Shown in pieces: positions 1 through 46,260 of a DNA stretch of 47,183 nucleotides. The first letter of the stretch is position 1; each line of letters opens with the position of its first letter. Both the position numbers and the translations under genes were made by a program. Below the pieces are notes generated by a model, which searched no databases, was not told the DNA's origin, and was given only the letters and a program-made list of their open reading frames with translations. This DNA is from Deltaproteobacteria bacterium (lineage in GTDB: Bacteria > JAUYMQ01): the NCBI GenBank assembly GCA_030698575.1, contig JAUYMQ010000648.1:1-47183 (forward strand), in the 5' to 3' direction.

Positions 1-141
1 CGATGAGCGCCCGGAGGCCTTCGGCTCGTGAATCGAGCGCGGCCTGTTGCTCCCCGCCACCCCGGGTCAGCCGCTCGGTTTTTCGCTCGGCCTGTCGCAC
101 ACGGTCGCCCGCGGCATGCGCGTTGGCGCGAGCGCGGTCGA
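1..141. repeat. Exact 141-bp terminal overlap with 47043..47183 (circular closure of the contig)
   Basis: Bases 1-141 (cgatgagcgcccggaggcc...gcgagcgcggtcga) recur identically at 47043-47183. The block lies inside a minus-strand CDS that closes in frame across the junction. Confidence 0.95.
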
Positions 142-1663
142 TCTGGGCGGACCTGATGCTCCGTGCCTTCTCCGCCCCTTGCTGTGCAGCCTCGCACAGC
201 GCAATGGTTTCGCGCGCAGCCACACCGACTTTCCTGGTCCGCTCCAGGTCCTGCTCGATCCGGGCTACAAGGCGCGCCGCCGCCGCGAAATCCTCCTCCA
301 TATCCTCGAGCACGCCGTGCGTGGTCTGGCCGCAGGTGGGGCAGATCCCCGACTCTAGCGCCGCAGCCTGCTGTTGTTGCACCCGCTGGTCCGCTTTGGC
401 GGCCGCCAGCTCCCCGGTGAGCCCGCGATATTCGGCGCCCGACTCGGCATGTACCGCACGCGCCGCTTCGAGCTCCCGCAACTTCTCCGGCGAAACCATC
501 GGCTCCGGCCCGGCCTCGATGGCTACGATTTCGGCGTTGGCCTGCGCGAGCTCTTGCCGGGCCGCCGCCAGCTCCCTGGCCGCCGCCGCTGCTGCTTCCC
601 CGCCCGACTGCTGGGCGAGCCGCTGCATCTCAGCCTCGAGGTTGCCGACTTCGGCGCGACGGGCCTCCAGGCGTTCTTTGCCCCGGCGCTCCTCCTCGGT
701 TGCAGCGGCGTAGGCCCGCCTGACATCGTCCAGGCGTCTCTGCGCCTCGGCGACCGCGCCCTCGGCCGCCCGAACCCGCTCCGCGCGGGTGCGCTCCCAG
801 CGCCGGATGTCCTCACGGCCGCGGTCCAGCTCGGCGCGCACCGCGGCGACGGTCTCGGACGCCCGATAAGCAGCCTGCTGCGCCGCCTCGGCTTCCTGCC
901 GCAGTCCGGCAATCGTAGTCGTGTCGGGCGCGTCCGGAGTCGGGGCCTCGAGGACCGGGTTGGTGGCGAGCACGGCGCTGCGTGCGGCCTTCTGGCGCTC
1001 CTTGCTGGTGATGCCGAGCACCAGCAGCACGTCCCGCACGTCGCCCTCGCTGCCGCCGGCGAGGCCGAGCTCGGAGAAGCGCGCCCGGAGCGCCGGCAAG
1101 TCGAGCGCTAGCTCATCGACCGAGGTCTGCTTGGCCCGGCTGAGGGCGCCGAGCGCCACCTCGTTGAGCAGCCGCTTTGGAGTCCACTCGGACACGCCGC
1201 CGCACAGGCGCAGTATCATCTTCTCGAGCTGGTCCGGCGCCATCGCCCGCATGGCCTCGAGGTCGAGCAGCATCGGCCCGACGTGAGGCGCGCCGTAGCG
1301 ATCGACGAGGGCCTGGCGCACGATGCTGTTTTTTCTCGCGTCGCACCCGCTGAGCTTCACGTTGCGCCGGCCGCTGTCGCCGTCGGCGGCAAACTCGAAG
1401 CTGGCCTGAGCGCCTCCACTGTCGTGCACCGTCACGCCCCACCGTCCGGTAGTGCCGGTCCAGTCGAGGCACGGGCCGGTGGCCACGACGCCCTCGTTGT
1501 CGGTCATCGCGCCGGGCACCTGCTGCGTCGTCGCGAGCAGGATCGCCTGGGCGATCGAGGTCTTCCCGGTGCCGTTCAAACCGCTGATGATGCCCGCCGC
1601 CGGCAGGTCCAGCGTGAGGACGTGCCCGCGGAAGCCAGCGAGCTCGACTTGGGTGAATCGCAT
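1..1663 (-). CDS. Rad50/SbcC-like SMC-family ATPase, N-terminal head plus coiled coil. It continues across the circular junction into 46261..47042, giving 2445 nt and 814 aa in total.
   Basis: My own reverse translation from ATG at 1663 gives MRFTQVELAGFRGHVLTLDLPAAGIISGLNGTGKTSIAQAILLATTQQ (Walker A GLNGTGKTS). A long Ala/Glu/Arg coiled coil follows, with a CPTCGQ CxxC hook-like motif encoded at about 329-343. The ORF track does not list it because the window edge truncates it. The start overlaps the upstream stop (TGATG). Confidence 0.85.
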   Translation of the reverse strand, partial: MRFTQVELAGFRGHVLTLDLPAAGIISGLNGTGKTSIAQAILLATTQQVPGAMTDNEGVVATGPCLDWTGTTGRWGVTVHDSGGAQASFEFAADGDSGRRNVKLSGCDARKNSIVRQALVDRYGAPHVGPMLLDLEAMRAMAPDQLEKMILRLCGGVSEWTPKRLLNEVALGALSRAKQTSVDELALDLPALRARFSELGLAGGSEGDVRDVLLVLGITSKERQKAARSAVLATNPVLEAPTPDAPDTTTIAGLRQEAEAAQQAAYRASETVAAVRAELDRGREDIRRWERTRAERVRAAEGAVAEAQRRLDDVRRAYAAATEEERRGKERLEARRAEVGNLEAEMQRLAQQSGGEAAAAAARELAAARQELAQANAEIVAIEAGPEPMVSPEKLRELEAARAVHAESGAEYRGLTGELAAAKADQRVQQQQAAALESGICPTCGQTTHGVLEDMEEDFAAAARLVARIEQDLERTRKVGVAARETIALCEAAQQGAEKARSIRSAQIDRARANAHAAGDRVRQAERKTERLTRGGGEQQAALDSRAEGLRALI

Positions 1664-1986
1664 CACGCCACCTCCATGGGCACGACCGTGGGCACGACGT
1701 CGCCCAGACGTCTGGCGTTGTTGTACGATCCCACGACCACGGCGCCTCCTAACCGTGGATCGTACGTAGCGATCCACTCAGCTAGGCAGTAGCGGGTTAT
1801 CAGCGCTCCGTACACCCAGATCGGCGCGCGGCCAGATAGGATCACGCCCCTGTCTGGAGGGACCTCGCCGTGGCGAGTGCCGATGCTTGGTAGGGCGAAC
1901 ATGGCCAAGTCGGCCGGCACGATCGGCCCCTCGGTGTCGATTTCCACGAGGGTGTACTTCGGTCCCTCCTGAATGGAGTACTTCAT
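1663..1986 (-). CDS. Csx3/Crn3-like protein (candidate cyclic-oligoadenylate binding protein or ring nuclease), 107 aa
   Basis: Internal ATG at 1986 of track ORF 1663..2316, preceded by GGAGGTGGGGGC. Sequence MKYSIQEGPKYTLVEIDTEGPIVP...VILSGRAPIWVYGALITRYCLAEWIATYDPRLGGAVVVGSYNNARRLGDVV. The SGRxPIW and YDPRLGxAVVV motifs and the length match my recollection of A. fulgidus Csx3. ATGA and TGATG overlaps join it to both neighbours. Confidence 0.6.
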   Translation of the reverse strand: MKYSIQEGPKYTLVEIDTEGPIVPADLAMFALPSIGTRHGEVPPDRGVILSGRAPIWVYGALITRYCLAEWIATYDPRLGGAVVVGSYNNARRLGDVVPTVVPMEVA

Positions 1987-2312: not shown

Positions 2313-2537
2313 TCACCAGATCCAGACTATTTGCGAGCTCCGCGCCAGTAGATCGCGGAGTTTATCGATTTCCGCGCGCTGCTCGCGCACGACCTCGCTG
2401 GCGTGCCGGCACTGCGTGGTTTCTAGCCACGATCCTCCCACCAACACAGCTACTCGACCGCACCGGTAGCCCACTACCGTCACTGTGCTGTCGAGAATTT
2501 CCGCCTCACAGATCGGGCACTTATCCAGCGCATGCAC
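2313..2537 (-). CDS. Small zinc-ribbon (CPxC) protein, 74 aa, first gene of the leftward operon
   Basis: GTG start at 2537. Sequence MHALDKCPICEAEILDSTVTVVGYRCGRVAVLVGGSWLETTQC... followed by a short coiled-coil tail. Confidence 0.6.
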   Translation of the reverse strand: MHALDKCPICEAEILDSTVTVVGYRCGRVAVLVGGSWLETTQCRHASEVVREQRAEIDKLRDLLARSSQIVWIW

Positions 2538-2558
2538 GTTCGTTCACCATTGCTCACT

Positions 2559-2575
2559 TGTGCAGCGGCTGCACA
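2559..2575. promoter_or_regulatory. 17-bp palindrome TGTGCAGCGGCTGCACA upstream of the leftward operon
   Basis: 8+1+8 perfect inverted repeat located 22-38 nt upstream of the GTG at 2537. It could be an operator or a 5'-UTR hairpin. Confidence 0.4.
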
Positions 2576-2822
2576 TCACCTACGCTCCCACCTGCCCGCT
2601 GCCCCGCAACTGCACGCCCTGCCGCGCCGTATCTCCCGCGCGCCGTAGCGAGCGGTACTGGGGTCCACGCTCCGCCACTCGCGGGGCCGGGCACGGGGCG
2701 CTGAGCCGGGCCGTGTGCTCCCTGCATGGGATCGCCCGGGGCGCCCCGCGCCGGCCTGGGCCCGCTGCGGGGGGTGCGTGGGGGGCTGGTTGTCAGGGAG
2801 CAACCGTTCAACGCCCCTATTG

Positions 2823-2873
2823 TTCCGCAACACGAAACATCCTGTCAACAGAAATGTTTCGCAGGGCGGAACA
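2823..2873. promoter_or_regulatory. Composite inverted repeat GTTCCGC-n5-GAAACAT-n13-ATGTTTC-n5-GCGGAAC (candidate operator)
   Basis: Symmetric about position 2848 in the divergent intergenic region between 2537 (-) and 2889 (+). The outer half-sites are identical to the palindrome at 5943-5959. Confidence 0.5.
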
Positions 2874-2888
2874 TGGCTGGAGGATCTT

Positions 2889-3278
2889 ATGGGCTGTCGA
2901 AAGGCCTATCAGACAGCAGGGCGCCCGGGGACCTTCGTGGAACGACGTGGCGATCAGGATGTATTTGAAGTGCGATCTGGGCCGAGGGTGTACCTGGGGT
3001 CGGTCGATGAACGGACCGTGAAGGTTGGCGTCGGCGATGTTGTCCTCTTCTCGCCCGATGCCGATGCAGACCGCCTCGCCGATGGTGTGCTGGTAGTCGT
3101 CAGCCGCCGCATGCCCCATACAGGCACGCGACAGATCCTAGTAGTAGAGGGCCGCGCCCTCCCCGGCGGCACCTGGCAGTACCTCCCCTGCGCGGAAGGC
3201 TTTGCCCCGCTCCTGAGCACGGACCCCGCCGTCGAGCTCGTCGGCGTCGTCGTCGAGGTGCGGAGGGCGTTCCGTTGA
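2889..3278 (+). CDS. Stand-alone S24 (LexA/UmuD C-terminal)-like domain protein, 129 aa, no HTH
   Basis: ATG at 2889 sits 5 nt after GGAGGA. The layout ...YLGSVDERTVKVGVGDVVLFSPDADADRLADGVLVVV...VELVGVVVEVRRAFR parallels UmuD ...GDSMIDGGISDGDLLIVD...GDIVIA...VFGVVIHVVKAMR. Confidence 0.5.
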   Translation: MGCRKAYQTAGRPGTFVERRGDQDVFEVRSGPRVYLGSVDERTVKVGVGDVVLFSPDADADRLADGVLVVVSRRMPHTGTRQILVVEGRALPGGTWQYLPCAEGFAPLLSTDPAVELVGVVVEVRRAFR

Positions 3279-3409
3279 CGAGGGCTGAGGATGACTGGCG
3301 TCTAGCGGGCGATAGCAGGTTGCGTAGGTATTAAGGAAGCACTGGCCGGTGTTGCCCGCTTGTCCCCGAAGCCCGCCGATGATACAAGCCCGACCGAGGC
3401 AGGAGGAAA

Positions 3410-3892
3410 ATGCCAGTGACCGTTCCAATTCAACTCAACACGTGGAGCCAGAAGGCCGCGGGTGATCTGGTCATCTTCAATGTAGGTTACGAGAAGCGGA
3501 GCCTTCACCAACTTTGTGCCACATTGGTTGCCGCCGGGGTCGAAGTTCTGCTCGACGTGCGCGAACGGCCATGGAGCATGCGCCCGGAGTTTCGACGAGA
3601 GCGACTCCGCAAAGAGCTCGATGCCTCGGGCATTGGCTACGTGCATTGCAAGGCTGCCGGGAACCCGTATCGGCCAAAGCCGGGTGAGGTGAAGTCGTTC
3701 GACGATTGCATGAGGGATTACGAGCGCCATATCCGCGCATCTCCTGATGTTGTCGAGGAAATGTCCGGGCTTCTACGTGGTCGGCGCGCAGCGGTTTTTT
3801 GCTACGAGGCTCGCCGTGATCGGTGCCATCGCAGCGTGCTCCTTGACGCCATCGAGCGCATCGCTGGCCCTTTGACCGTCGTCGACCTATAA
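3410..3892 (+). CDS. DUF488 family protein, 160 aa
   Basis: GGAGGAAAATG ribosome-binding site. The motifs VLLDVRERPWSMRPEFRRERLRKELDASGIGYVH and AVFCYEARRDRCHRSVL match the DUF488 pattern DVR..P.S...F...L...GI.Y.H ... C.E.....CHR. Confidence 0.7.
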   Translation: MPVTVPIQLNTWSQKAAGDLVIFNVGYEKRSLHQLCATLVAAGVEVLLDVRERPWSMRPEFRRERLRKELDASGIGYVHCKAAGNPYRPKPGEVKSFDDCMRDYERHIRASPDVVEEMSGLLRGRRAAVFCYEARRDRCHRSVLLDAIERIAGPLTVVDL

Positions 3893-4708
3893 CCCGAACA
3901 TCGTCATCTGGCCGACCTTAGGCACCTTGAGCGAGTCCAATAGCATGAAGTTCGTGAGGTGGGTGCGTGATGTTCCCACGAAGAAGAAGATGTCGTATCG
4001 GGCCGTGTCGAGCTCGCGACGCATCAAGTCAATGACCTTGCCATTCAAGTTCGCGTCCCTGGCGAACTTCAGCTTCCGGTAGAGCTCGTTGAGGCCCCAG
4101 TTGTTGAGGCGCATGTCGTGTCCATTGCATCTGTTGTCATCGCAACGCCATGGAACGTGAAAGCCCATCTCCGGAAAGGCAATAGGCTTCATTTGGCCAA
4201 ACATGGCACCCTGAGCCAACAGTTCGCGTTCGATCGCTTCCCATTCGGCGCGCTCGGACTCGGGCCTGCGCTTGAGGTAGATCTTATCGAGGTTGATCGC
4301 CTTCGGCCTGACGATTGCGAGGGAGCGTTTTGGAAGCTTTCCTTTAGGACGTTCGGCTGTCATGGACTCGATGGAGTCAGCAATGCCTGGTGAACGCTCA
4401 ACATAATTTCGCCGTTCTTCGGGATCCTTAATTACCGGGCCGAGCTCGATCGAGTCGGGATGGATCCGGATGCTCTCGCTGCGTGGATCCTCAGAATGCG
4501 GCGCTGCGTCAACCGTGATCCACTGCCACGCCTTAAACCGCTTGCCTTCGTCGAGATACCGCTTTGGAACCGGGTGCAACCGCACAATTTCCTTGGTGTC
4601 CTCGCGAAGCGCTCCGGTACACGCGACTTCTCGGTACTTTCTTGAGTACCGCGGGTAGGTCGTCCCCAGCACGAGAAGGCGCGATCGGGTCCACATCTTC
4701 GGGTGCAT
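3887..4708 (-). CDS. Hypothetical protein, 273 aa, no family recognised (Cys/His cluster WRCDDNRCNGHD)
   Basis: Clean ORF with AGGAA before the ATG. The composition is protein-like and lies in the A/T-richer island. Its 3' end overlaps the DUF488 gene by 6 nt (convergent). Confidence 0.7.
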   Translation of the reverse strand: MHPKMWTRSRLLVLGTTYPRYSRKYREVACTGALREDTKEIVRLHPVPKRYLDEGKRFKAWQWITVDAAPHSEDPRSESIRIHPDSIELGPVIKDPEERRNYVERSPGIADSIESMTAERPKGKLPKRSLAIVRPKAINLDKIYLKRRPESERAEWEAIERELLAQGAMFGQMKPIAFPEMGFHVPWRCDDNRCNGHDMRLNNWGLNELYRKLKFARDANLNGKVIDLMRRELDTARYDIFFFVGTSRTHLTNFMLLDSLKVPKVGQMTMFGL

Positions 4709-4765
4709 TTCCTAGTCCCATTGCTAGTTGTTGATTGGCCATGTTGACATTCACGCGCGCGGGAC

Positions 4766-4781
4766 GCCGCGAGCACGCGGC
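4766..4781 (-). terminator. GC hairpin GCCGCG-agca-CGCGGC between the SHOCT gene and the 273-aa gene
   Basis: 6-bp perfect stem with a 4-nt loop, 28 nt downstream of the stop at 4809. No U-tract follows, so terminator function is uncertain. Confidence 0.25.
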
Positions 4782-4808
4782 ACCAACTTCGGCCTCCTCC
4801 TTGTGACG

Positions 4809-5132
4809 TCATATCTCCCCCAGCACCGCCTCCCGCCGCGCGCGCCACTCGGCGTCCGTGATGAGGCCGGAGGCTCGAATTTCGTCGAGCTCCTGAAGAC
4901 GGTCCGCCGCACCTCGCCGGGGTGCTATCAATGCGCCTGATGTGGCGATCGCCTCACGAGACGCATTCCGCTTTGCCCGACCGATGAGGTCCGCTCCAAT
5001 AAAGCAGATGATGGCAACCACGACTTGGAGCCATGGGATGATTGCGACCTTGAACATGGCATAGGTGTATAGGGCGCTCACCCCTGCCCACCCAAGAGTG
5101 ATGGCGCCGATGATGGTCAGGACGTAGTTCAT
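4809..5132 (-). CDS. Small membrane protein with a C-terminal SHOCT-like domain, 107 aa
   Basis: Two hydrophobic helices (NYVLTIIGAITLGWAGVSALY and IIPWLQVVVAIICFIGADLI), then ADRLQELDEIRASGLITDAEWRARREAVLGEI. ATGA overlap with the upstream gene. Confidence 0.6.
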   Translation of the reverse strand: MNYVLTIIGAITLGWAGVSALYTYAMFKVAIIPWLQVVVAIICFIGADLIGRAKRNASREAIATSGALIAPRRGAADRLQELDEIRASGLITDAEWRARREAVLGEI

Positions 5133-5533
5133 GGGATCAATCCTATGCTATCGAAGGCGTTCGCATGAGCAGGCATCTTAAAGATGCATTCGTACAAGCC
5201 ACGCCGCGCGTCGGAATTCTTGATGGCCAACGTGACATAGTCAGGGTTTTCCGGAGGGTTGATATCCCAACCTTTGCTTTTGAGAAGTTCGTCCACCGAA
5301 ATTCCAGACCCAGCCATAGCACGTCGACAAGACACCATGTCCCATCCCTTTTCGCCCAGCTCCGTCAGGTCATTGTTGAGGTCGAAGTCCTCAATCGCGA
5401 CGACAGAGTACGACCATCCAGATGCGTCTGGACCCGTTTCCAGCCACGCGTGAATGACCAACGTTTTTAATAGCTCCCAAGTCACAGCGGCCAGCAAAAG
5501 AGCAATTATGACATAACCTTGCATCTTCGACAC
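5129..5533 (-). CDS. Membrane-anchored protein with a DUF4177-like domain, about 134 aa
   Basis: GTG at 5533 sits 6 nt after GGGAGG (the track starts at TTG 5539). N-terminal TM segment YVIIALLLAAVTW. WSYSVVAIEDFDLNNDLTELGEKGWDMVSC resembles the DUF4177 pattern W.Y....LN.LG..GW..V. Confidence 0.5.
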   Translation of the reverse strand: MSKMQGYVIIALLLAAVTWELLKTLVIHAWLETGPDASGWSYSVVAIEDFDLNNDLTELGEKGWDMVSCRRAMAGSGISVDELLKSKGWDINPPENPDYVTLAIKNSDARRGLYECIFKMPAHANAFDSIGLIP

Positions 5534-5535
5534 GT

Positions 5536-5913
5536 TCAACCTCCCGTTTTGTTGTGTCGACGTTGCACGACCTTGATGTGGTCCAATGCCTCGCGACGAG
5601 CATCCGGGTTGAGCCCTTCGAGGATCGTGATGGCCTCCAACGTTTCAGCATCAAGCGTCGCCTCTGGCGGATGGTGGTAGCCGAACAATTCGTACGTTGG
5701 GCATTGGAGCGCATCCGCGAGCACGTCGATGGTCTGGTGCGTCCATCCGATGTTCGAGATCTCCATTCGCGCGATGGTTGATCGGTGCATACCGGCTCGT
5801 TCAGCAAGTTGTTCCTGCGTCAACCCTCGTCGTTTCCTTGCCTCTGCCAGGCGTAGCCGCATCAACAGAGTGTCGCACATGCCGGAGCATTGCTCGATAG
5901 CGCGGCGCGGCAC
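5536..5913 (-). CDS. XRE-family HTH repressor (CI-like), 125 aa, no peptidase domain
   Basis: GTG at 5913 sits 5 nt after GAGG. MRLRLAEARKRRGLTQEQLAERAGMHRSTIARMEIS is a classic HTH_3 motif. Divergent from a Cro-like gene with a palindromic operator between them. Confidence 0.8.
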   Translation of the reverse strand: MPRRAIEQCSGMCDTLLMRLRLAEARKRRGLTQEQLAERAGMHRSTIARMEISNIGWTHQTIDVLADALQCPTYELFGYHHPPEATLDAETLEAITILEGLNPDARREALDHIKVVQRRHNKTGG

Positions 5914-5933
5914 CTTTACCTCATGGTTCTGGC

Positions 5934-5962
5934 TTGACTAACGTTCCGCGTTGCGGAACAAT
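5934..5962 (+). promoter_or_regulatory. Sigma70-like promoter TTGACT-17-AACAAT, with the palindromic operator GTTCCGCgttGCGGAAC (5943-5959) in its spacer
   Basis: The -35 is at 5934-5939 and the -10 at 5957-5962, with a 17-nt spacer. The ATG of the Cro-like gene at 5969 lies 7 nt after the -10, implying a leaderless or near-leaderless transcript. Confidence 0.5.
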
Positions 5963-5968
5963 GTCTGC

Positions 5969-6382
5969 ATGAAGCTTGCTGCGTACAAGAGACAGCACCG
6001 GTTGACCTACGAGAGGCTCGCGAAGCTGCTGGCGATGACGAAGACATCCGCCTGGCGCTACTGCCAAGGCGAGGTGCCCTCGGCAGCCGCCGCCAACCGC
6101 ATCAGTAGGGCGACGAACGGCGAGGTAACGGTAGAGGAGCTCCTCTACCCCACCGGCGTCTCGCCCGGCGCCCGCATGACCCCTCGCGATCCTATGCCCG
6201 AGCTCGAGGACGACGAGCAGCTCGAGGACGACGCCGCCGACAACCCCGCCGCCCCGGGCACCAACCCCTGCGGCCACCCGAGCACCTTGGTGCGCGGTGG
6301 CGTGACGAACTACTGCTCGGGCTGCGAGAGCGACGCCCGGGAGATGGACGCCAGCGGCGGTGCCGACGCTGCGGCGGCTTAG
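5969..6382 (+). CDS. Cro/YdaS-like HTH regulator with an acidic/Cys C-terminal extension, 137 aa
   Basis: MKLAAYKRQHRLTYERLAKLLAMTKTSAWRYCQGEVPSAAAANRISRATNGEVTVEELLYP resembles Cro/YdaS-type HTH proteins. Divergent from the XRE repressor. Confidence 0.65.
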   Translation: MKLAAYKRQHRLTYERLAKLLAMTKTSAWRYCQGEVPSAAAANRISRATNGEVTVEELLYPTGVSPGARMTPRDPMPELEDDEQLEDDAADNPAAPGTNPCGHPSTLVRGGVTNYCSGCESDAREMDASGGADAAAA

Positions 6383-6465
6383 GGCGTGGCGCGGGTGTGG
6401 GATGTGCTGCGGCCGGCCGACGCGCAGGCGAAGGCCACCGCGCAAGCGGCGTAGGAGGTGCGGCG

Positions 6466-6639
6466 ATGCGAGCCCTCGTGAGCTCGACAGTGGCATGGGG
6501 TGCAGTGGCGGTCCTCGAGGTTGCGGTGGTGGTGCTCCGTCGCGCCCGCATGCTCGGGAGCCCCTCCATATCTATTGATGCGTCACAGCATGCCGGCGCC
6601 GCCGGGCTGGCGCACGCAAAGGCGAGGGTGCCGCGGTGA
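6466..6639 (+). CDS. Small hydrophobic protein, 57 aa
   Basis: Internal ATG of track ORF 6397..6639, preceded by AGGAGGTG at 6-nt spacing. Sequence MRALVSSTVAWGAVAVLEVAVVVLRRARML... The stop overlaps the next GTG start (GTGA). Confidence 0.45.
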   Translation: MRALVSSTVAWGAVAVLEVAVVVLRRARMLGSPSISIDASQHAGAAGLAHAKARVPR

Positions 6640-7136
6640 GGAACTCGCACAGGACCCCCAGAGCAGCCCGCGTCGCGTTCTCGCGGGCTGCCGCTGCCGT
6701 GGGCTATCAGGACATCGCCGACCTGTTCGGCTGCGACCGGTCGACGGTCAGTCGCTGGTGCTCCGGCGACCTCCCCCTTTACCTCGACACGGCGGGCGCG
6801 GTTGCGCGCCATCTGCAAGGGGTGGAGTGGAGCGAGGAGGTGCGCTCGATCGGCCGCGGGCTCGCCCAGGCGATCGCCGAGGAGGCCGGCGCCACCCTGA
6901 CGGGGCCAGTCCGGCTGGACGCCGACGCGCTGTCGCGGACGGTCTCGCAGACGGCCACCGCGGTGCTCGAGCGCGCCGGCGTGCTGGTGCGGGCCGCGGT
7001 GGACGCGGAGGCCGACGGCGTGGTGACGCCGGACGAGCTGCGCACGCTGATCCGCCTAATGGCCGAGCACGTGGACTGCTGCCGCGGCCGGCTCGCGGTC
7101 CTCGAGGAGCGGCTGCGGGCCGCGTCGAGCGCATGA
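6636..7136 (+). CDS. HTH DNA-binding regulator (possibly CII/CP76-like), 166 aa
   Basis: GYQDIADLFGCDRSTVSRWCSGD is an HTH motif. The C-terminal helical region contains DGVVTPDELRTLIRLMAEH. Confidence 0.55.
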   Translation: MRNSHRTPRAARVAFSRAAAAVGYQDIADLFGCDRSTVSRWCSGDLPLYLDTAGAVARHLQGVEWSEEVRSIGRGLAQAIAEEAGATLTGPVRLDADALSRTVSQTATAVLERAGVLVRAAVDAEADGVVTPDELRTLIRLMAEHVDCCRGRLAVLEERLRAASSA

Positions 7137-8005: not shown

Positions 8006-8650
8006 ATGTTCCACGAACAGACAAGACGCTGTGAGCTAACAAAGCTGACGTTCAAGCGGCAGGGGTCCGACGTACTAGCGGACCTGACACTGCGCGTGCT
8101 CCTCCACTGGCAGGAGTCTTTCCGCCTCGGCATCGACACCAACGAGTTCGCCGAGCGGTACGAAAAGGCGTCGCTACGGACTAACCTCGGCTGGTACGAC
8201 CTTGACGTCGATCCGTGCGGCCTCCACCCGCTGAAGCTGCGGGAGCGGTCGCTGGACAAGCCTCAGGTGGACATCGAACTGCCGGCCGCCGCGCGAAGCC
8301 GCCGCAAGAAGCTCGAGGATCTCCTCCCCGGTTTGGGTGCGCAGTCGGCGCTGGTGTGGCTCACCTTCACGGTGGGCGCACCGTTGATCGGCGATTGTCG
8401 CCATCAGGTATGGGCCCTCTTGCGGGCTCTCGGCGAGGTCGTCGACGTGAAGTTCTGGGCCCTGGGTCGCGGCCGCGCGGAGGGCGAGCAGCTCGACGTT
8501 GATGGCGCGATCGTTAAACACACTGAACGCACCGGAGGCCCTGCCCCAGCGGGTGATTTACCCGCCGCAGCGCGCAACGGCGACGGCCGCGTTGCCGACA
8601 CCGCCGACACCGCCGACACCGCCGACACCGAGCAACCATCGCTCAACTGA
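8006..8650 (+). CDS. Hypothetical protein, 214 aa
   Basis: GGGAGAG precedes the ATG and the composition is protein-like. The C-terminal (ADT)x4 is encoded by 4 x gccgacacc at 8594-8629. Confidence 0.6.
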   Translation: MFHEQTRRCELTKLTFKRQGSDVLADLTLRVLLHWQESFRLGIDTNEFAERYEKASLRTNLGWYDLDVDPCGLHPLKLRERSLDKPQVDIELPAAARSRRKKLEDLLPGLGAQSALVWLTFTVGAPLIGDCRHQVWALLRALGEVVDVKFWALGRGRAEGEQLDVDGAIVKHTERTGGPAPAGDLPAAARNGDGRVADTADTADTADTEQPSLN

Positions 8651-8663
8651 CGGGGAGGGTACG

Positions 8664-9170
8664 ATGCGCGAGCTCGCCGACGTCACGCTCCGCCTGCCCA
8701 TCGCGCCCGCGGCCAAGGGCAGGCCCAAGGCGCGAGTGCTGCAGCTTGGGGCGCGGACCATCGCTCAGATGTACACCCCGGCGACCACCCGCGCCTTCGA
8801 GGCGACCATCGCCGACATGGCCGCTGCGCGCCTGGAAGGCCGCATCTTGGAGGGCCCGCTCCGCGTCGACATCCTCGCGGTGCTCCAGCGCCCGCAAGGG
8901 CTCCTCCGCAAGCGGGACCCGGAGGGCATCACCTGGGCCCCGAAGCGTCCGGACCGCGACAACCTGGAGAAGGCGGTGCTCGACGGGCTTTCTGCTTGCT
9001 TCCGGGACGACGCTCAGGTCGTCGCCGGCGAGACCATCAAGGTCTACGCCGAGAAGACTGGCTGCCCCCGCGTGGTCGTGCGCATCCGTCAGCTCGGAGA
9101 GCAAGACCTGCTCGCCGCCGCCAACCCCGAGGCGCTCGCCGCGTCACTCGGGCTGCTCGTGGAGGGGTGA
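8664..9170 (+). CDS. rusA: RusA-family Holliday junction resolvase, 168 aa
   Basis: Internal ATG at 8664 follows GGGGAGGG. PIAPAAKGRPKARV...MYTPATTRAFE...KRPDRDNLEKAVLDGLSACFRDDAQVV matches the RusA motifs (P..K.R., DxDN..K...D.....DD.QV). Confidence 0.8.
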   Translation: MRELADVTLRLPIAPAAKGRPKARVLQLGARTIAQMYTPATTRAFEATIADMAAARLEGRILEGPLRVDILAVLQRPQGLLRKRDPEGITWAPKRPDRDNLEKAVLDGLSACFRDDAQVVAGETIKVYAEKTGCPRVVVRIRQLGEQDLLAAANPEALAASLGLLVEG

Positions 9171-9171
9171 C

Positions 9172-10497
9172 GTGGCGGAGATCACCTACACCGTAGCTCC
9201 CGCTCGGGAGTCCTCCACCCGCAAGTTCGCCAAGCTCAGCCGGGATGCCCGGCTTGCCATCAAGTGCCTGCGGGACCAGGTGGATCGATGGGGCTGCGTC
9301 ACGGCGGACCCCTGGGAGATCCAGGGGATGTGCCTCCGAGACTATTCGGAGGAGGAGATAGGGGCGTGTCTGAGTGAGGCTGCGGGGGCGGGGCTCATCG
9401 TGTTGTATGAGGCCGGTGGAGCACCGTGGGCGTGGTTCCCCGACCACGACAGCATGCACGACGGCTCGTATCTGCGCACCAAGCGCGGCCGCCCAACGCT
9501 CCCGCTGCCCCCCTGTCACCCGACGCTCGCGCAGGAGACGAGTACTCCGGAGCAGGTCCAGAGCACTCCGGAGCAGGTCCAGAGTACTCCGGAGCAGGTC
9601 CAGAGCACTCCGGAGCAGGTCCAGAGCACTCCGGAGCAGGTCCAGAGTACTCCGGAGCAGGTCCAGAGTACTCCGGAGCAGGTCCAGAGCACTCCGGAGC
9701 AGGTCCAGAGTACTCCGGAGAACTCCTCACGCGCGCGACGCGCGGACCTCGACCTCGACCTTGACCTCGACCTCGACCTTGACCGCGACCAGACAGGGGC
9801 GGAGGCGGCGCAGGGATCTAGCTACGCGCGCACGCGCGAGGCCGGGCCGCCGCCGCCGACTGCCGACGGTTATGCCGGTTCTGCGTCTCGCTCGTCGGAG
9901 CCGTCATTGCCCGAGCCCGAGCCCGAGCCCAAGCTCGCCGCGGCTCCGGTGTCTGCCGGCCGGGGCAACCCCGGGGCTACCCCGGGCTCTACCCCGGGCT
10001 CTACCCCGGGGCAACCCCGGGGTGACCCTGCGCTGGACTGCCTGTGGCCCAGCTTCCTCGCCGGGGCGGAGCTGCTCCAACGCGGGGGGCACCCGTGCGA
10101 GATGGGGTCGGTGGCCCGGGAGGCATGGGAACGCACGGTTCGGGCCTTCCCGCAGCTCGACCACGAGACCGCCATCGCCGAGTGGGTCGCGCACTGGTCA
10201 GGACCGAGGGCGAAGAAGCGCTACGGCCCGGTGCTGGATGCGGTGGCGAGCTATCACCAGGCCTGCGACCTTGCGCTGAGGAAGCAACTCGAGCAGGAGG
10301 CACGGCAACGTGAACGGGACAAGCATGTGGGCGCGCAAGCCGGAGACGCGAAGTCTGGCGGACATATTGGCGTCGCTGCCAACAAGCACTACGACGAGGC
10401 AGCGTTCGCCCGAGAGCGAGATCGACGCAAACAAAACGTGGGCGTGTCCGGCGCACGGAAACGTGTGCCGACTCCTGCGGAAACCGGAGGGATATGA
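9172..10497 (+). CDS. Replication initiator/organiser-like protein with a repeat-rich central linker, 441 aa
   Basis: GTG at 9172 sits 5 nt after GGAGGGG. Its position is upstream of a DnaC-like loader. The N- and C-terminal parts look globular, and the centre encodes (STPEQVQ)x8, (DL)n, (PE)n and (TPGS)n. Confidence 0.5.
   Translation: MAEITYTVAPARESSTRKFAKLSRDARLAIKCLRDQVDRWGCVTADPWEIQGMCLRDYSEEEIGACLSEAAGAGLIVLYEAGGAPWAWFPDHDSMHDGSYLRTKRGRPTLPLPPCHPTLAQETSTPEQVQSTPEQVQSTPEQVQSTPEQVQSTPEQVQSTPEQVQSTPEQVQSTPEQVQSTPENSSRARRADLDLDLDLDLDLDRDQTGAEAAQGSSYARTREAGPPPPTADGYAGSASRSSEPSLPEPEPEPKLAAAPVSAGRGNPGATPGSTPGSTPGQPRGDPALDCLWPSFLAGAELLQRGGHPCEMGSVAREAWERTVRAFPQLDHETAIAEWVAHWSGPRAKKRYGPVLDAVASYHQACDLALRKQLEQEARQRERDKHVGAQAGDAKSGGHIGVAANKHYDEAAFARERDRRKQNVGVSGARKRVPTPAETGGI
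9541..9720 (+). repeat. Tandem 21-bp repeats ag(t/c)actccggagcaggtccag, 8 full units plus a 12-nt partial unit (iteron-like, candidate ori)
   Basis: Units start at 9541, 9562, 9583, 9604, 9625, 9646, 9667, 9688 and 9709. Each contains the 8-bp palindrome CTCCGGAG. They are in frame within the initiator-like CDS. Confidence 0.9.
9745..9792 (+). repeat. Hexamer tandem repeat (gacctc/gacctt)n
   Basis: gacctcgacctcgaccttgacctcgacctcgaccttgaccgcgacc encodes DLDLDLDLDLDLDRD. Confidence 0.85.
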
Positions 10498-40203: not shown

Positions 40204-41397
40204 CTAGTCGTCATCCTTGCCACCCATTACCGTCAGCCGAGCTCCCTGGAGAGCCCGCCGAAGGTGCGCCCCAATCGCTTGCGTCGCCGGGTCCGACTGC
40301 CCCGGAAGCGCGTGCCGATAGACGCGGCTCGCCGTTCGCTCGTCCTCGTGCCCGAGCAGGCTCGCCAGCGCGCGCAGGTCGCCGCCGGCCAGTGTCGCAG
40401 CGGTGTGCCGCAGGCCGTACGGCGAGACGTATGGAACTCCGGCCAGCTCCGACGTGGCGCGGATGCGTCGCCGTAGCGGCTTGGCGTCGCAGGCCTGGCT
40501 CTCGTGCCTCCGCCCGAGCGGGAACAACAGGCCCGCACCGCCGGCCTCAGCGTCGCGCCGGTTGACCCACGCGCGTACCACCTCGAGGCACGTGTCATCC
40601 GCGATCGTGAATGCACGCACCGCGCGGCGCGACTTCACCCGCTCGCCTTCGCGCGGGCGCACGTAGACCACGCCGCGCATGGCGTCCACATCCGCGACGC
40701 GCAGGCGCAGCGCTTCTCCCGGCCTCGGTGCGTGGCAGAGCACGATGGCGAGCGCTGGCCACTCGGGCCACCGCTTCTCGAGCTTGAACACGGCCCGAAA
40801 CCAGCGGTCGAGTTGGTGCGGGTGTAACCACTCGCGCCCGTGCTCCCCCTCCGGGCGTTTGATGTCCGCCCACGTCACGGACGGTGCATGGCCGCAAGCC
40901 ACAAGATGTCTCTGCATCGCTGTAACCGCGTCGAGCTCCGCCGCTACGGTGCGCTGCGAGATCTTGGAGCCCGTGCGCGAGCCGTCCATCTTGAGCCTGG
41001 CGTCTCTGTAATCAATGCCCTGCTCGCGCGTAATGCGCAGAGGGCACGGCTCGCCCAGGAGCCTACCGACCGCACTGAAGCGATCCCGGTAGGTCGTCAG
41101 GCCACTCTCGGCGTCGCCCTCGTCCTTGCGCCATGCCAAAAATTCGGCCACTGCCTCGGTCCATGTGGTCGGTGCCGTCAGCCGTCCCGCGAGGAGCTCC
41201 TCTGCGATGCGCCTTGCCGCGGCTTCTGCCTGCTTTTGTGTGGTGGCGATCGGAAGAGGGATCTCGCGCGTGCGAGGGCGTCCTCTGTCACTGTCCCAGG
41301 TGGTAGTGACGACGATCCATCTGTGGGTGACGTCGCCGTCCCACTTGTTGCGCCGCCAGCTTGCGACGGCGCGGTCTCCTGTGTACTTCCGGCCCAT
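40204..41397 (-). CDS. int: Tyrosine recombinase (phage integrase), 397 aa
   Basis: ATG at 41397 follows GGAGG. Catalytic-type motifs are GEALRLRVADVD, YGLRHTAATLAG and LLGHEDERTASRVYRH. The first 181 codons of track ORF 40204..41940 are an Arg-rich non-coding-looking extension. Confidence 0.9.
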   Translation of the reverse strand: MGRKYTGDRAVASWRRNKWDGDVTHRWIVVTTTWDSDRGRPRTREIPLPIATTQKQAEAAARRIAEELLAGRLTAPTTWTEAVAEFLAWRKDEGDAESGLTTYRDRFSAVGRLLGEPCPLRITREQGIDYRDARLKMDGSRTGSKISQRTVAAELDAVTAMQRHLVACGHAPSVTWADIKRPEGEHGREWLHPHQLDRWFRAVFKLEKRWPEWPALAIVLCHAPRPGEALRLRVADVDAMRGVVYVRPREGERVKSRRAVRAFTIADDTCLEVVRAWVNRRDAEAGGAGLLFPLGRRHESQACDAKPLRRRIRATSELAGVPYVSPYGLRHTAATLAGGDLRALASLLGHEDERTASRVYRHALPGQSDPATQAIGAHLRRALQGARLTVMGGKDDD

Positions 41398-41609
41398 TGG
41401 GTACCTCCAGCCCCGGACCGGCGTCTCGGTGCCGGAGGCAATGATGCGCCGTCGTCCGTCACCTCCGCAAGGGCCCTTTCGGCCTCGGCAAGCTCGGCTT
41501 CCACGGCGGCGCGGGCCGCTCGCAGCTCCCCAACTCGGCGGAAAAGGTAGGCACGGGCTGTGGTGGGCATGCCGGCGGGCTCCGAAGCGTCGCGATCGTC
41601 GCCCATCAT
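41178..41609 (-). CDS. Possible small coiled-coil ORF coupled to the upstream gene (uncertain)
   Basis: ATGATG at 41609 overlaps the upstream TGA. MMGDDRDASEPAGMPTTARAYLFRRVGELRAARAAVEAELAEAERALAEV looks real, but the frame stays open 220 nt into the integrase CDS. Confidence 0.2.
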   Translation of the reverse strand: MMGDDRDASEPAGMPTTARAYLFRRVGELRAARAAVEAELAEAERALAEVTDDGASLPPAPRRRSGAGGTQWAGSTQETAPSQAGGATSGTATSPTDGSSSLPPGTVTEDALARARSLFRSPPHKSRQKPRQGASQRSSSRDG

Positions 41610-42568
41610 GCCGCGGCCGGCTCCTGGGCGAGCTGCTCGATCGCCGCCCGCTCCTCGTCTGTTGCCGGGCGACCCGCGATGATGTCGCCGATTCGTCGCA
41701 ACGGGATGCTCGTCTCCTCCGCAAGCCGCCTGTTGGTCCACCCCGTGTCGACCAACGCCTGAAGCTGGCGCGGCAGGCCCGCCGCGCGGTACGGCTTTGG
41801 GGCAGCGAAGCGATCTGAACGCCCAGTCGTGGCGGGCTTCTGCGAGGGGCTCGCCACGGCTGGCTTCCGCGCGGGGGAATCAGTAGGTGGCGGCTCAGGC
41901 TCGACGGGTGTCGGATCTGACGGCGGACCGGCCGAGCCATCCGGCGCTGTTGAGTGGCTGCCGTTGCCGCCGCATTTCAGCACGTGGCGCCAGAGCTGCG
42001 CACAGCTAAAGGCGCTGTGGCACCGAGGGCACTCCTCGTTGGTAGGTGCCCGCGCCGCATCGAGGCTGCGAAGCTGCCCGACGTGCGGGAACGGCGGCAC
42101 ATCGACCGGCTGTTTTGCCGCACGCGCTCGAGCTCCATACTTCTTCAGAGTTTTATCGACGGCGTCGCTGCCACCGCCAAGCTCCGCCGCGATTTCCGGC
42201 GTTGCCCTGCCGGCCTCGACAAGGTCAGCGATCGCGTCGAGGCGCTTCTGGTTGCGCCACTTGGCCGTTGGGTTGACGCTGCGAGCGACCTTTTGCTTAG
42301 ACTGACTGCGCTTCGCCGGCGCCGGAGGCTCCGCCGGCGCCTGAGGCTTCTTCGGTCGCTGCGGCGCTGGCTGGGGTTGCGCCGAAGATGCGGAGGCATC
42401 GAGCGCAGGCTGCACGCCGGTGCCAACTATCCACGCATCGACCTCTTCACGCAGGGCAATTGCCAGGGTGGCGCGGATGAGGGCATCAAGCTCGACGATC
42501 GTCGCAGCCGCCTGGTCCCGAAGGGCGGTGATCAGCGGCTCGTGTAGTTTGGTTTGGGTCTTAGGCAT
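41606..42568 (-). CDS. Multi-domain DNA-binding protein (RHH-like N-terminus, two HTH segments, CPRC...H...C zinc finger), 320 aa
   Basis: KLHEPLITALRDQAAATIVELDALIRATLAIAL is RHH-like. ATPEIAAELGGGSDAVDKTLKKYG and TNRRLAEETSIPLRRIGDIIAG are HTH-like. Confidence 0.55.
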   Translation of the reverse strand: MPKTQTKLHEPLITALRDQAAATIVELDALIRATLAIALREEVDAWIVGTGVQPALDASASSAQPQPAPQRPKKPQAPAEPPAPAKRSQSKQKVARSVNPTAKWRNQKRLDAIADLVEAGRATPEIAAELGGGSDAVDKTLKKYGARARAAKQPVDVPPFPHVGQLRSLDAARAPTNEECPRCHSAFSCAQLWRHVLKCGGNGSHSTAPDGSAGPPSDPTPVEPEPPPTDSPARKPAVASPSQKPATTGRSDRFAAPKPYRAAGLPRQLQALVDTGWTNRRLAEETSIPLRRIGDIIAGRPATDEERAAIEQLAQEPAAA

Positions 42569-44208: not shown

Positions 44209-45258
44209 CTATGCCCACGGGTCGAAGTCGCCGCCGGCCGCCGGCCCCTGCGCGGGGGGCGCCGTCGTCGCAGTCGTTGTTGGTGCAGGGGTTGCCGTCG
44301 TCGCACGCGTCGCGCTCATGGCAGTGAAGGGGTCGTCATCGCCTTCCAGCGGCTTACGCTGTACGGACGCGGGGTTGCGGTCGGTCGGGAAGAGCCGCGC
44401 GGTGCGCTCGCCGTTTTTTTCCATCTGGTGCGCGGGGGGCGCCGTCGTCGCACGCTCGGATTGTGCAGGCGTCGCCGTATCATCTGACTCGGCCTCGTCG
44501 GCCTCGTTGTCGATCCAATCGTGGGCCTCGACCAGCTTGGTCGTGGGGAGATCGCCGAGGCGGACGAGTGTGAAGTCCTGCAGGAGGTTTTGCTCGGCGT
44601 CGTCGTCGATCTCCCTCAGGCGCTGGCGGAGAGCGGCGACGTCCGTGTGTGAGATAGTCTCTGGCTGCCGTCGCCGGCGGCTGGTGGGGCGCTCGGGTTC
44701 ACGGTTTGTCTTCTGTGAGCGCCGTGGAGCGGGCTCGTCGTCTTCATCCTGCGGGAAGTCCTCGCTACCGATGTGGCTCAGATCCAGTATGTTTGTGGCC
44801 CGGATCTCAGCCATCTCACTATCGGTGATCTCCTCCTCCGGCGTGATCGAGTAGGTGGTCTTCGGGTCGCCCTTCTGCCCCACCCGCTCGATTTGATACC
44901 ACCACAGCTCGCGACCGAGCTTCTTGGTGGCTCGGCAGACTAGCTTGAACCAGCCAATTCCACCCTCCACAACCTTCATCCGACATTCGTCCCGGACGTA
45001 GAAGCACACCATGACCTTGACGCTCTTCCGGCTGCCCTTGCGGCACGCGCGGCAGTCGGACCCGCCGCAGTCGACGTAGGTCTGCCCGGTCCAGTGTACC
45101 TCCCGGATCCGCGGGTCACCCACGAACGCCCCCACCACCGTATCCTCGTCATCCTCCAGGCGGACGTAGATCGATGCCCTCTTGGCGATGTCCTTCGCGG
45201 TCGCCAATGCGGCGTCCCACGCGTCCGCACCTCGCGCCCGTCCGTTGCCTCTTGCCAT
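44209..45258 (-). CDS. Putative ssDNA-binding/annealing protein with a Zn motif and a long acidic/TAP-rich tail, 349 aa
   Basis: ATG at 45258 sits 7 nt after GGAGG (alternative GTG at 45261). It contains CGGSDCRAC, lies next to the YqaJ exonuclease, and ends in GGDFDPWA. Confidence 0.35.
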   Translation of the reverse strand: MARGNGRARGADAWDAALATAKDIAKRASIYVRLEDDEDTVVGAFVGDPRIREVHWTGQTYVDCGGSDCRACRKGSRKSVKVMVCFYVRDECRMKVVEGGIGWFKLVCRATKKLGRELWWYQIERVGQKGDPKTTYSITPEEEITDSEMAEIRATNILDLSHIGSEDFPQDEDDEPAPRRSQKTNREPERPTSRRRRQPETISHTDVAALRQRLREIDDDAEQNLLQDFTLVRLGDLPTTKLVEAHDWIDNEADEAESDDTATPAQSERATTAPPAHQMEKNGERTARLFPTDRNPASVQRKPLEGDDDPFTAMSATRATTATPAPTTTATTAPPAQGPAAGGDFDPWA

Positions 45259-46250
45259 CACTTAACCTCCGAAACCGTAAAACGACGGTAGCTGGACGTC
45301 GCGCAGTACTCCGCCGCGAGGTCCGGTCGCTCCGCCCGCAGTCGTTTGATGTCGATCCGCTCGGACTGGACAGTCGTCCACCGCACCAGGTGGCTGCCGG
45401 CAGAGCCCTTCTCGTGCTCTCCGAGCATTGTTTTGATTTGATTTTCCACCGCGGTCCGCCGCCGCTCGAGTGCCTTCTGCTCGTCGCAGATGGACTCCCG
45501 CTCCGCGATGAGCGACAGCGCGTCCGCCGGCAGCCGCACGATGTCTGGGGTGGACTCGGCCCACAGCAGCGCCAGCGCTTCCGCGGTGCTCTCGGTGTCG
45601 TCCACCGGGGGCATCTCGCCCGACTGCACGTAGCCCCAGAACTCGCGTTCCTGCTGGAGCAGCCAGGCGATGGCGTCCTCGTCGCGGTTGACGATGCGCT
45701 CTTCATAGTGGTTGCCGCCGAGCAGGACGGGGACGTAGGCCCGCTGCACCATGGGCCCGAGCACCGCGAGGTAGTGGAGGGTCTGCCAGTAGTAGTCGGC
45801 CGGCACTCCACCCGCCCACTTGCGCTTCATGTACTCGCCGCCGGTCTTCACCTCGACGAGCACCGGCCGCCGGTTCTCGTCCAGTGCAATGCCGTCGAGG
45901 TTGGCGAGAGCCCACGGCACATCGGGGTGGCGGAGGGTGGCCCCGACGCGGTGGACGGTGAGCTCCGGGTGCGACTCGGCGAACTTCTGGAGCACCGTCG
46001 CCTCGTGGCGGTGCCCCCACTCCATGGGCTCAGTCTGCTCCCGAGGTGGGATCCGGTCGGTCTTGTCCGCCCAGAGGTAGACCCGCGAGCGGTAGTCGCT
46101 CTTGCCAACCGCGGCCGCGGCGTCGGATCCGCCGATGCCACCCTTGCGCAGCTCGAGCCATCGCTCGTGCGTCATGGCGTCGTGCCAGCCGATGATCCCC
46201 GCGTGCCCGACGCGCGTTGCAGTCCGGGGGATGGTCTGTATAGCGCCCAT
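45258..46250 (-). CDS. YqaJ-type (lambda Exo-like, PD-(D/E)XK) recombination exonuclease, 330 aa
   Basis: Internal ATG at 46250 follows GGGGGGTGG. ERWLELRKGGIGGSDAAAAVGKSDYRSRVYLW, EWGHRHE and LDGIALDE...VLVEVKT are YqaJ motifs. Confidence 0.8.
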   Translation of the reverse strand: MGAIQTIPRTATRVGHAGIIGWHDAMTHERWLELRKGGIGGSDAAAAVGKSDYRSRVYLWADKTDRIPPREQTEPMEWGHRHEATVLQKFAESHPELTVHRVGATLRHPDVPWALANLDGIALDENRRPVLVEVKTGGEYMKRKWAGGVPADYYWQTLHYLAVLGPMVQRAYVPVLLGGNHYEERIVNRDEDAIAWLLQQEREFWGYVQSGEMPPVDDTESTAEALALLWAESTPDIVRLPADALSLIAERESICDEQKALERRRTAVENQIKTMLGEHEKGSAGSHLVRWTTVQSERIDIKRLRAERPDLAAEYCATSSYRRFTVSEVK

Positions 46251-46260
46251 GCCACCCCCC

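Follow-up and report, generated by a model that had tools for sequence, protein, structure and literature searches.

Phage defence candidates (PDCs) are predictions that rest on the location of genes inside BREX, DISARM and type I restriction-modification (RM) loci, and most of them are untested (Payne et al. 2024, bioRxiv 10.1101/2024.01.29.577857). One of these candidates, PDC-M19, is an adjacent two-gene module, whose components M19A and M19B are represented by profiles in PADLOC. Proteins matching both components are encoded in the 47,183-bp stretch of DNA analysed here (the window), which is the entire contig of a metagenome-assembled genome (MAG) of a 'Deltaproteobacteria bacterium'. Gene A encodes a DUF488 protein of 160 residues (3410-3892, plus strand), and gene B encodes a 273-residue protein with a predicted tandem oligonucleotide/oligosaccharide-binding (OB) fold (3887-4708, minus strand). 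A terminase, a portal, a major capsid/head protein, a tyrosine integrase and a RecE-like exonuclease are all encoded on the contig, which is therefore that of a temperate phage or prophage. With moderate confidence, we read the pair as a self-contained, mobile two-gene conflict module of the PDC-M19 kind that would serve prophage-encoded defence or superinfection exclusion. The pair is already catalogued as a PDC-M19 candidate, of which it represents the short-A, convergent form; there is no experimentally defined defence family for it to join.

B aligns near full length with PDC-M19B (PDLC04508, E 8.2e-33, residues 8-250 on profile positions 3-244 of 269), and A matches PDC-M19A (PDLC04505, E 1.2e-24, profile positions 145-284 of 294; PDLC04504, positions 82-224 of 234). 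The two genes adjoin with an overlap of 6 nt, and relatives of the pair lie inside or beside RM and other defence loci. In these respects the locus resembles PDC-M19. It differs in that the window A matches the DUF488 half of the M19A profile only and lacks a Panacea-type N-terminus, in the convergent rather than A->B gene order, and in the location in a phage immunity region; PDC-M19 is, moreover, itself a prediction. The part of the M19A profile that A lacks, at its N-terminus, appears to be equivalent to the Panacea domain found in long forms of A. Like M19A, the profile phrog_14939 has an N-terminal extension matching the long A forms, and the longer N-termini of both profiles arise because the long forms are Panacea-DUF488 fusions. 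An earlier reading of the window from its letters alone (the sequence-only reading) had proposed horizontally acquired cargo and a two-gene system with a possible role in defence or exclusion, to which the comparative evidence given below lends support. Its description of a DUF488 gene converging on a 273-residue gene with a 6-nt overlap is correct in the sequence, as are the DVR..P.S and C.E.....CHR motifs in the DUF488 translation and the Cys/His cluster in B.

A second related pairing is that of the DuOB and DUF488-N3a families, whose source is reportedly the study of the RapZ-C/DUF488/DUF4326 clade by Burroughs and Aravind in 2023. The same study is said to place DUF488 in the rhodanese-phosphatase superfamily and to predict DNA-end processing in virus-host conflict. 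The window locus is similar in pairing a dual-OB protein with a DUF488-clade enzyme, whereas its B and A proteins fall below both Pfam thresholds and the kinship is at the level of fold or distant family. A scores 23.9 bits against the 27-bit cut-off of DUF488-N3a (PF22751), over residues 97-150 alone, and likewise matches DUF4326 (PF14216) below threshold. The two OB units of DuOB (PF22557) are present in the AlphaFold2 (AF2) model and structural matches of B, and its sequence gives no match to DuOB at E <= 0.1. DuOB is the sole recurrent Pfam signal in the B family, being found in 6 of 117 members with a best E of 1.3e-4, all sub-threshold.

The sequence-only reading had recognised no family for the 273-residue protein. 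This holds for Pfam and NCBIfam, in which B has no match, and does not hold for PADLOC and PHROG, in which it matches PDC-M19B and phrog_25907 (E 1.7e-33). B matches no housekeeping or phage-structural family, and the PADLOC match to a defence candidate is found instead. Word-seeded homology searches of B and of A returned 4 relatives each; a full HMMER scan gives 1,795 B representatives at 50% identity clustering. The family is large (~1,800 such clusters), extends across many bacterial phyla, and moves on phages, plasmids and defence islands. The 69 retrieved B homologues carry no Pfam domain with the exception of one protein (P0218), a possible chimera or fusion in which a B fragment is joined to a partial DUF488.

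The AF2 model of B, built from an alignment of 62 sequences, has a predicted local distance difference test score (pLDDT) of 93.6 and a predicted template modelling (TM) score of 0.89. The comparison of the B profile with PDB sequences gave noise-level matches (best E 0.59). The best PDB matches of the model in Foldseek are all tandem-OB proteins, namely Oxytricha telomere end-binding protein alpha (TEBP-alpha), HIN-200 proteins (p205, MNDA, IFI16, AIM2-type), RPA70 DNA-binding domains (DBD) A and B, LEF-3 and RADX, and baculovirus LEF-3 single-stranded DNA-binding proteins (SSBs) are found in the viral structure library. The Foldseek probabilities are 0.95-1.0, with 0.99-1.0 for TEBP-alpha, HIN-200, RPA70 and the viral-library LEF-3, and the best TM scores are 0.42-0.46 (RPA70). 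On the strength of the model, B is predicted to have a tandem OB fold of the type that binds single-stranded DNA (ssDNA), DNA ends or the DNA backbone. Like TEBP-alpha, RPA70 DBD-A/B, HIN-200 (AIM2/IFI16) and LEF-3, it has two OB barrels per chain; unlike them, it shares only 6-13% identity with these proteins at global TM scores of 0.25-0.46. HIN-200 proteins are innate-immune DNA sensors and offer a functional parallel for B.

In B, Arg43, Asp74, Arg76 and Trp204 are invariant in the family, and Pro19, Ser22, Glu27, Pro46, Arg50, Glu78, Ser79 and Arg99 are nearly so. By the DSSP string, most of the conserved residues map to the canonical binding face of the first OB unit (OB1), formed by loops L12 and L45 and strand beta3; conserved Arg, Asp, Glu and aromatic residues are found on this face. 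Trp204 and Cys/His residues fall in the second half of the protein, where residues 187-198 (WRCDDNRCNGHD) hold the Cys/His cluster. Cys30, Cys189, Cys194 and His197 are conserved in 98, 88, 85 and 92% of the family, respectively, and constitute a probable zinc site joining the two halves of B. The Cys3-His cluster and the invariant Arg, Asp and Glu residues appear unfamiliar from the tandem-OB binders named above, and the pattern of residue conservation appears unusual for a passive SSB. We also note that the Arg/Asp/Glu invariants led to consideration of B as a staphylococcal-nuclease-like OB enzyme; no nuclease is present among the top 50 Foldseek matches, and the idea is left as speculation.

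A is a DUF488 protein (PF04343, E 1.6e-20), with 74.4 bits against a cut-off of 22.2 bits, and its ATG start codon at 3410 is preceded by an AGGAGG Shine-Dalgarno sequence. Both motifs of the family are intact: Asp49-Val-Arg51 in DVRERPWS, and Cys131-x-Glu133-x5-Cys139-His-Arg141 in CYEARRDRCHR. Asp49, Arg51, Cys131, Glu133, Cys139, His140 and Arg141 are invariant in the DUF488 alignment. According to Pfam, the protein is a short form without the N-terminal Panacea or helix-turn-helix (HTH) domain of some relatives. At the sequence level DUF488 has no match in the PDB. AF2 models A as a small alpha/beta domain of Rossmann-like fold (pLDDT 82), for which Foldseek returns weak matches to the Cys-phosphatases KAP (1fpz, probability 0.98) and SsoPTP (0.87-0.95), to PRL-3 and to CbiL-type methylases. 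All of them have E > 1e-3 and TM scores of 0.3-0.48, and P-loop GTPases score alike. The C-x-E-x5-C-H-R loop differs from the canonical C-x5-R phosphatase motif. The modelled fold is compatible with the rhodanese-phosphatase placement of DUF488 without proving it.

Conservation of the pairing was followed in 61 B loci from GTDB species genomes, found with an alignment of 13 close sequences. DUF488 directly flanks B in 51 of the 61, and its Pfam sister family DUF4326 flanks B convergently in three more (L050, E 4e-21; L059, E 1.5e-23; L058, by clustering with these two). In bacteria, the partner of B always belongs to the DUF488/DUF4326 clade, and DUF4326 can stand in for DUF488. One locus without a partner ends at a contig edge, and six have an intact B with neither DUF488 nor DUF4326 beside it (L009, L011, L016, L020, L056 and L057; four Myxococcota and two Planctomycetota). 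A DUF488 match of L016 from BLAST clustering proved to be a shadow open reading frame (ORF), and the hidden Markov model (HMM) result was used, which leaves B of this locus solo. The six solo genes argue that B is not lethal alone. All-against-all clustering of every ORF shows A and B to be the only families common to the loci. Over 49 loci, pairwise identity in B follows pairwise identity in A (r = 0.80, Mantel p = 0.001), and both genes therefore travel and diverge together. The proposal that the two genes form one unit, which the sequence-only reading had tied to their co-occurrence in other genomes, is supported by these counts.

Two side observations concern the partners of B. The solo B of L056, from a Planctomycetia MAG, lies directly downstream of an XPB/Rad25-like helicase gene (ResIII, XPB_DRD, Helicase_C; 3996-5909, plus strand), which may be an alternative partner. 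In L048 (1579-2616, minus strand) and the near-duplicate locus L049, a second DUF488 gene is present on the opposite strand just downstream of the B->A pair. Two ORFs in the flanks match PADLOC PDC-M45B (E 4e-56), probably on account of this gene, and DUF488 paralogues may combine in related candidate systems.

The stop codons of the window pair abut within the shared sequence CTATAA (3887-3892), in which TAG of B occupies 3889-3887 and TAA of A occupies 3890-3892; no terminator can fit between the genes. A scan of 2400-6500 for sigma-70 promoters and intrinsic terminators found no terminator-like site and was uninformative for this high-GC deltaproteobacterial phage. Among 55 pairs over all fetched loci, counting the window and the L016 artefact, the layout is B->A in 35 (including the artefact), convergent in 14 (including the window), A->B in six and divergent in none. 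Eleven of the 14 convergent loci have 3' overlaps of 4 nt or more. On the B tree the layouts are intermixed, and the A-B linkage has therefore been kept through several rearrangements. The convergent layout is found in several phyla: on plasmids of Streptomyces, Arthrobacter and Pseudomonas the 3' ends overlap by 4-44 nt, and on Rhizobium pRL8 they are 8 nt apart. This makes the window layout a conserved variant and not an accident.

The position of the pair on the phage genome recalls other systems. In phage lambda, rexAB is located on the repressor strand downstream of cI (cI-rexA-rexB), and in actinobacteriophages, prophage-mediated defence genes are encoded beside the repressor. In the window, a cI-like Xre-family repressor (5536-5913, minus strand; HTH_31, E 4e-11; HTH_3, E 7.5e-11; NCBIfam phage RstR-like; PHROG transcriptional repressor families) is divergent from a Cro-like HTH gene (5951-6382, plus strand; HTH_31) and a CII-like activator gene (6636-7136, plus strand; Phage_CP76; phrog_101 CII-like). 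The repressor and these two early-lytic regulators define a lambda-type immunity region. From the repressor, a string of minus-strand genes runs leftward through 5129-5539 and 4809-5132 to B, which is the last. B is on the repressor strand, downstream of the repressor and outside the structural and replication modules, as rex-type genes are, and the B gene of the Gordonia phage Nymphadora holds the same position. Unlike the lambda system, B has no kinship to Rex in sequence or fold, and the second gene, A, is convergent. This gene order makes expression of the pair from the prophage probable.

The Gordonia phages Nymphadora, BatStarr, Eviarto, TimTam and Herod present a similar arrangement, in which the repressor gp44 is followed by the B homologue gp43 with a 1-nt overlap, gp43 shares 10 nt at its 3' end with the convergent gp42, and the integrase is located just beyond. 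In Nymphadora, gp42 is a DUF488 protein (PF04343, E 1.2e-29; L069 5825-6277, minus strand) that RefSeq NC_031061.1 names 'HipA toxin', and gp43, labelled 'hypothetical' in the same record, is a B homologue with a DuOB match of 2e-3. A group of actinobacterial phages and a deltaproteobacterial phage therefore share a repressor-linked slot for the pair, in agreement with the sequence-only reading, which had stressed the neighbourhood of the lysogeny repressor. The pair is now directly testable, as the cultured Gordonia terrae phages carry this layout. B is rare in phages, with 2 matches in 2.9 million IMG/VR contigs and 7 in 50,697 GenBank phage records. One IMG/VR match (L067) has the same gene layout as a Pyrinomonadaceae locus (L015), and an IrrE-like peptidase is encoded directly upstream of B in this layout and in L012.

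B is also found on 23 plasmids, of which 11 are conjugative, archaeal Sulfolobus and Saccharolobus plasmids included, and the A-B pair occurs on conjugative plasmids of four bacterial phyla. On the archaeal plasmids, an unrelated protein of 163-168 residues is encoded downstream of B (L070, Sulfolobus islandicus pSOG2, 2998-4358; L075, Saccharolobus shibatae pBEU9E1, 2567-3858), and it has no match to Pfam or the DUF488 HMM. A D...E-x-K pattern seen by eye in this protein raised the idea of a PD-(D/E)xK nuclease, which has no Pfam support and is not used as evidence.

Genes of known defence systems are frequent beside the pair. Pfam matches among the 116 ORFs that immediately flank it include N6_Mtase, Mrr_cat, SIR2_2, Shedu SduA and an IrrE-type M78 peptidase; PADLOC adds type I and IIG RM, SduA, AbiP2/DRT, TIR effectors, DrmMI/DrmC, a type IV restriction endonuclease (REase), MADS mad2 and other PDCs. 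SIR2/ThsA is likewise among the immediate neighbours. In L002, the pair is directly behind an HsdM-type methylase gene, and in L001, AbiEii, a methylase and an insertion sequence (IS) element are nearby. The link to defence neighbourhoods that the sequence-only reading had envisaged is seen in raw counts: many known defence genes adjoin the pair elsewhere, and housekeeping genes do so as well.

The conflict module that we favour could work as follows. B would be co-expressed with the repressor in lysogens and would recognise ssDNA or ends that foreign DNA exposes as it enters or replicates, where it would deliver or license A. A might then remove or transfer a terminal phosphate or sugar-phosphate, either at the ends of nucleic acids or on a ligand that is a nucleotide or derives from ADP-ribose, and circularisation, replication or packaging would be blocked as a result. 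No such substrate would be offered by the integrated prophage or by the circular chromosome. The convergent, 3'-overlapping genes without a terminator would permit independent regulation and possibly mutual antisense read-through. In this model the pair can be likened to a binder of the RPA, TEBP or HIN type that works with an enzyme of Cys-phosphatase fold. Viral proteins join DUF4326 to Macro, NADAR and SLOG domains, and a role in processing ADP-ribose- or ribose-linked terminal phosphates has been proposed for it (PMC9503650). The terminal-phosphate step suggested for A agrees with this proposal, and also with the DNA-end processing that Burroughs and Aravind are said to predict. A bolder version, which we regard as improbable, would be a new immune mechanism in which a tandem-OB sensor of foreign ends or ssDNA, similar to HIN-200, RPA or TEBP, directs a DUF488/DUF4326 protein of Cys-phosphatase fold to edit termini, for instance by taking off or transferring a terminal phosphate and so leaving cos ends unligatable or unprimed, with neither nuclease cleavage nor cell death, and in which the gene overlap acts as an antisense lysogenic/lytic switch. 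A defence activity of the pair, if true, would be the first function assigned to DUF488, and it could bring to light a form of defence that works by processing nucleic-acid ends.

Several points weigh against the defence reading. We found no experimental test of PDC-M19 or of any DUF488 and B pair in the literature, and a search on PDC-M19, DUF488, DuOB and DUF4326 found no functional study. To our knowledge, no substrate of DUF488 has been described. Foldseek gives no match of A to Cys-phosphatases at E <= 1e-3, which makes the structural link weak, and A aligns to just the C-terminal half of the M19A profile. B is separated from the gene upstream of it by 100 nt, no sigma-70-like promoter or terminator was detected, and only the order of the genes points to its expression in the lysogen. 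Some genes flanking the pair are housekeeping ones (aconitase, chaperonin, SAICAR synthase), and the defence neighbours were counted without a genomic background. Finally, the Panacea and Xre HTH domains in the A proteins of relatives would fit a toxin-antitoxin (TA) system better than a sensor and effector.

The last point leads to a TA or addiction module, in which B is a growth-inhibiting, DNA-binding or DNA-modifying toxin and A is an enzymatic or binding antitoxin that reverses or blocks it. Such a module would mainly stabilise the mobile element, with any phage defence arising through abortive infection; we consider it a serious, though less likely, rival. Panacea is a promiscuous antitoxin domain (PMC8832971). 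SocA_Panacea-DUF488 fusions (E 1.4e-9) are observed in three A->B loci (L028, 5126-5989; L030, 5092-5967; L031, 5096-5971), in keeping with the extended M19A and phrog_14939 profiles, and an Xre-type HTH-DUF488 fusion, a typical antitoxin architecture, is encoded on a Streptomyces canus plasmid (L072, 4783-5475, minus strand). These fusions suggest an antitoxin-like role, or antitoxin-like regulation, for A. The resemblance extends to PanAT and DarTG, with which the pair shares such domains in some A homologues, the combination of an enzyme with a nucleic-acid-directed partner, and a home on mobile elements. The occurrence on plasmids, prophages and IS-flanked islands and the invariance of polar residues in B, unusual for a passive SSB, would also suit a toxin and its antidote, and convergent, independently regulated genes may recall poison-antidote RM systems. 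The window A, however, has neither a Panacea nor an HTH domain and is in this respect not PanAT-like. The fold of B resembles binders and no known toxin or enzyme, intact B genes stand without a DUF488 or DUF4326 neighbour in the six solo loci, and a variable, often convergent gene order is atypical of type II TA operons.

A module that benefits the phage or plasmid itself is quite improbable in our view. Here B would coat the ssDNA or ends of its own element, and A would strip from them blocking groups such as the 3'-phosphates or ADP-ribose-derived adducts that host defences leave behind, for end protection, repair or counter-defence. The closest structures to B include a telomere end-binding protein and the SSBs of viral replication (LEF-3), the sister family DUF4326 has the viral Macro, NADAR and SLOG fusions mentioned above, and the pair is carried by phages and conjugative plasmids, which enter cells as linear or single-stranded DNA. 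The window phage, in addition, has a Csx3-like gene with a possible anti-CRISPR function. Most loci, on the other hand, are chromosomal, often beside RM, Shedu, SIR2, TIR or DISARM genes; B is rare in phages; and both phage lineages hold the pair on the repressor side of the lysogeny region and not among replication or early genes. Least probable of all, to the point of being hard to credit, is a housekeeping accessory pair for DNA repair that is present in the phage by chance and has no role in conflict. DNA repair classically employs both OB-fold proteins and enzymes that process ends, and some neighbours are housekeeping genes, whereas the distribution is patchy, the neighbourhoods vary by locus, the pair resides on plasmids, prophages and islands with atypical GC in the window, and PADLOC chose it for its embedding in defence systems.

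The base composition of the region is distinctive. The contig has a GC fraction of 0.671 with a standard deviation of 0.039 in 500-bp windows, and the values are 0.592 for the DUF488 gene (z -2.0) and 0.567 for B (z -2.7). The longest low-GC run on the contig extends from about 3300 to 5950 (mean GC 0.574) and takes in A, B, two membrane-protein genes and the repressor. The sequence-only reading had placed an A/T-richer island at 3280-4708: the low GC is real, whereas the stretch continues to ~5950 and the contig minimum of 0.51-0.52 lies at 5100-5600, outside the pair. The G+C counts it gave for 60-nt lines (32, 32 and 50) are exact on recount. Its label of 'S24-like' for the gene at 2715-3278 finds no support in Pfam, NCBIfam, PADLOC or PHROGs.

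Two small genes, with GC fractions of 0.51-0.61, are located between the repressor and B. The gene at 5129-5539 (minus strand) encodes a predicted membrane protein of 136 residues with a hydrophobic N-terminal segment; it has the lowest GC of any gene on the contig (0.511) and no family match in Pfam, NCBIfam, PADLOC or PHROG. The other, at 4809-5132 (minus strand), encodes a predicted membrane protein of 107 residues that matches SHOCT weakly at its C-terminus (E 2.7e-4, short of the Pfam cut-off) and has no match in PADLOC, NCBIfam or PHROG. The gene at 5129-5539 shares 4 nt with the repressor gene and 4 nt with the gene at 4809-5132, and co-transcription of both small genes with the repressor is therefore likely. 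The two membrane proteins are themselves candidate superinfection-exclusion genes. The promoter scan of the window places a promoter-like site at 5934-5962 on the plus strand.

The ends of the contig were also inspected. An SbcC-like ORF (2-1777, minus strand) runs past the left end, and the RecE-like exonuclease gene (45258-46481, minus strand) is near the right end. The integrase gene is internal (40204-41940), and no obvious terminal repeat is seen at the contig ends. A permuted or incomplete phage genome, and not a prophage flanked by host DNA, may therefore be what the contig represents.

Csx3 proteins are cyclic-oligoadenylate ring nucleases. The Csx3-like gene of the window codes for ~107 residues (1663-1986, minus strand) inside a longer ORF (1663-2316); it matches Cas_csx3 (PF09620, E 3e-22) with 78.7 bits against a cut-off of 21 bits and has no match in PHROG. 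By analogy, this phage-borne copy could have an anti-type-III-CRISPR function. Among the remaining ORFs, we note one of 583 residues (8746-10497, plus strand) in which nine tandem STPEQVQ heptads precede a (DL)n run, and another upstream of it (8006-8650, plus strand) that ends in TADTADTADTE repeats; both may be shadow ORFs in GC-rich DNA.

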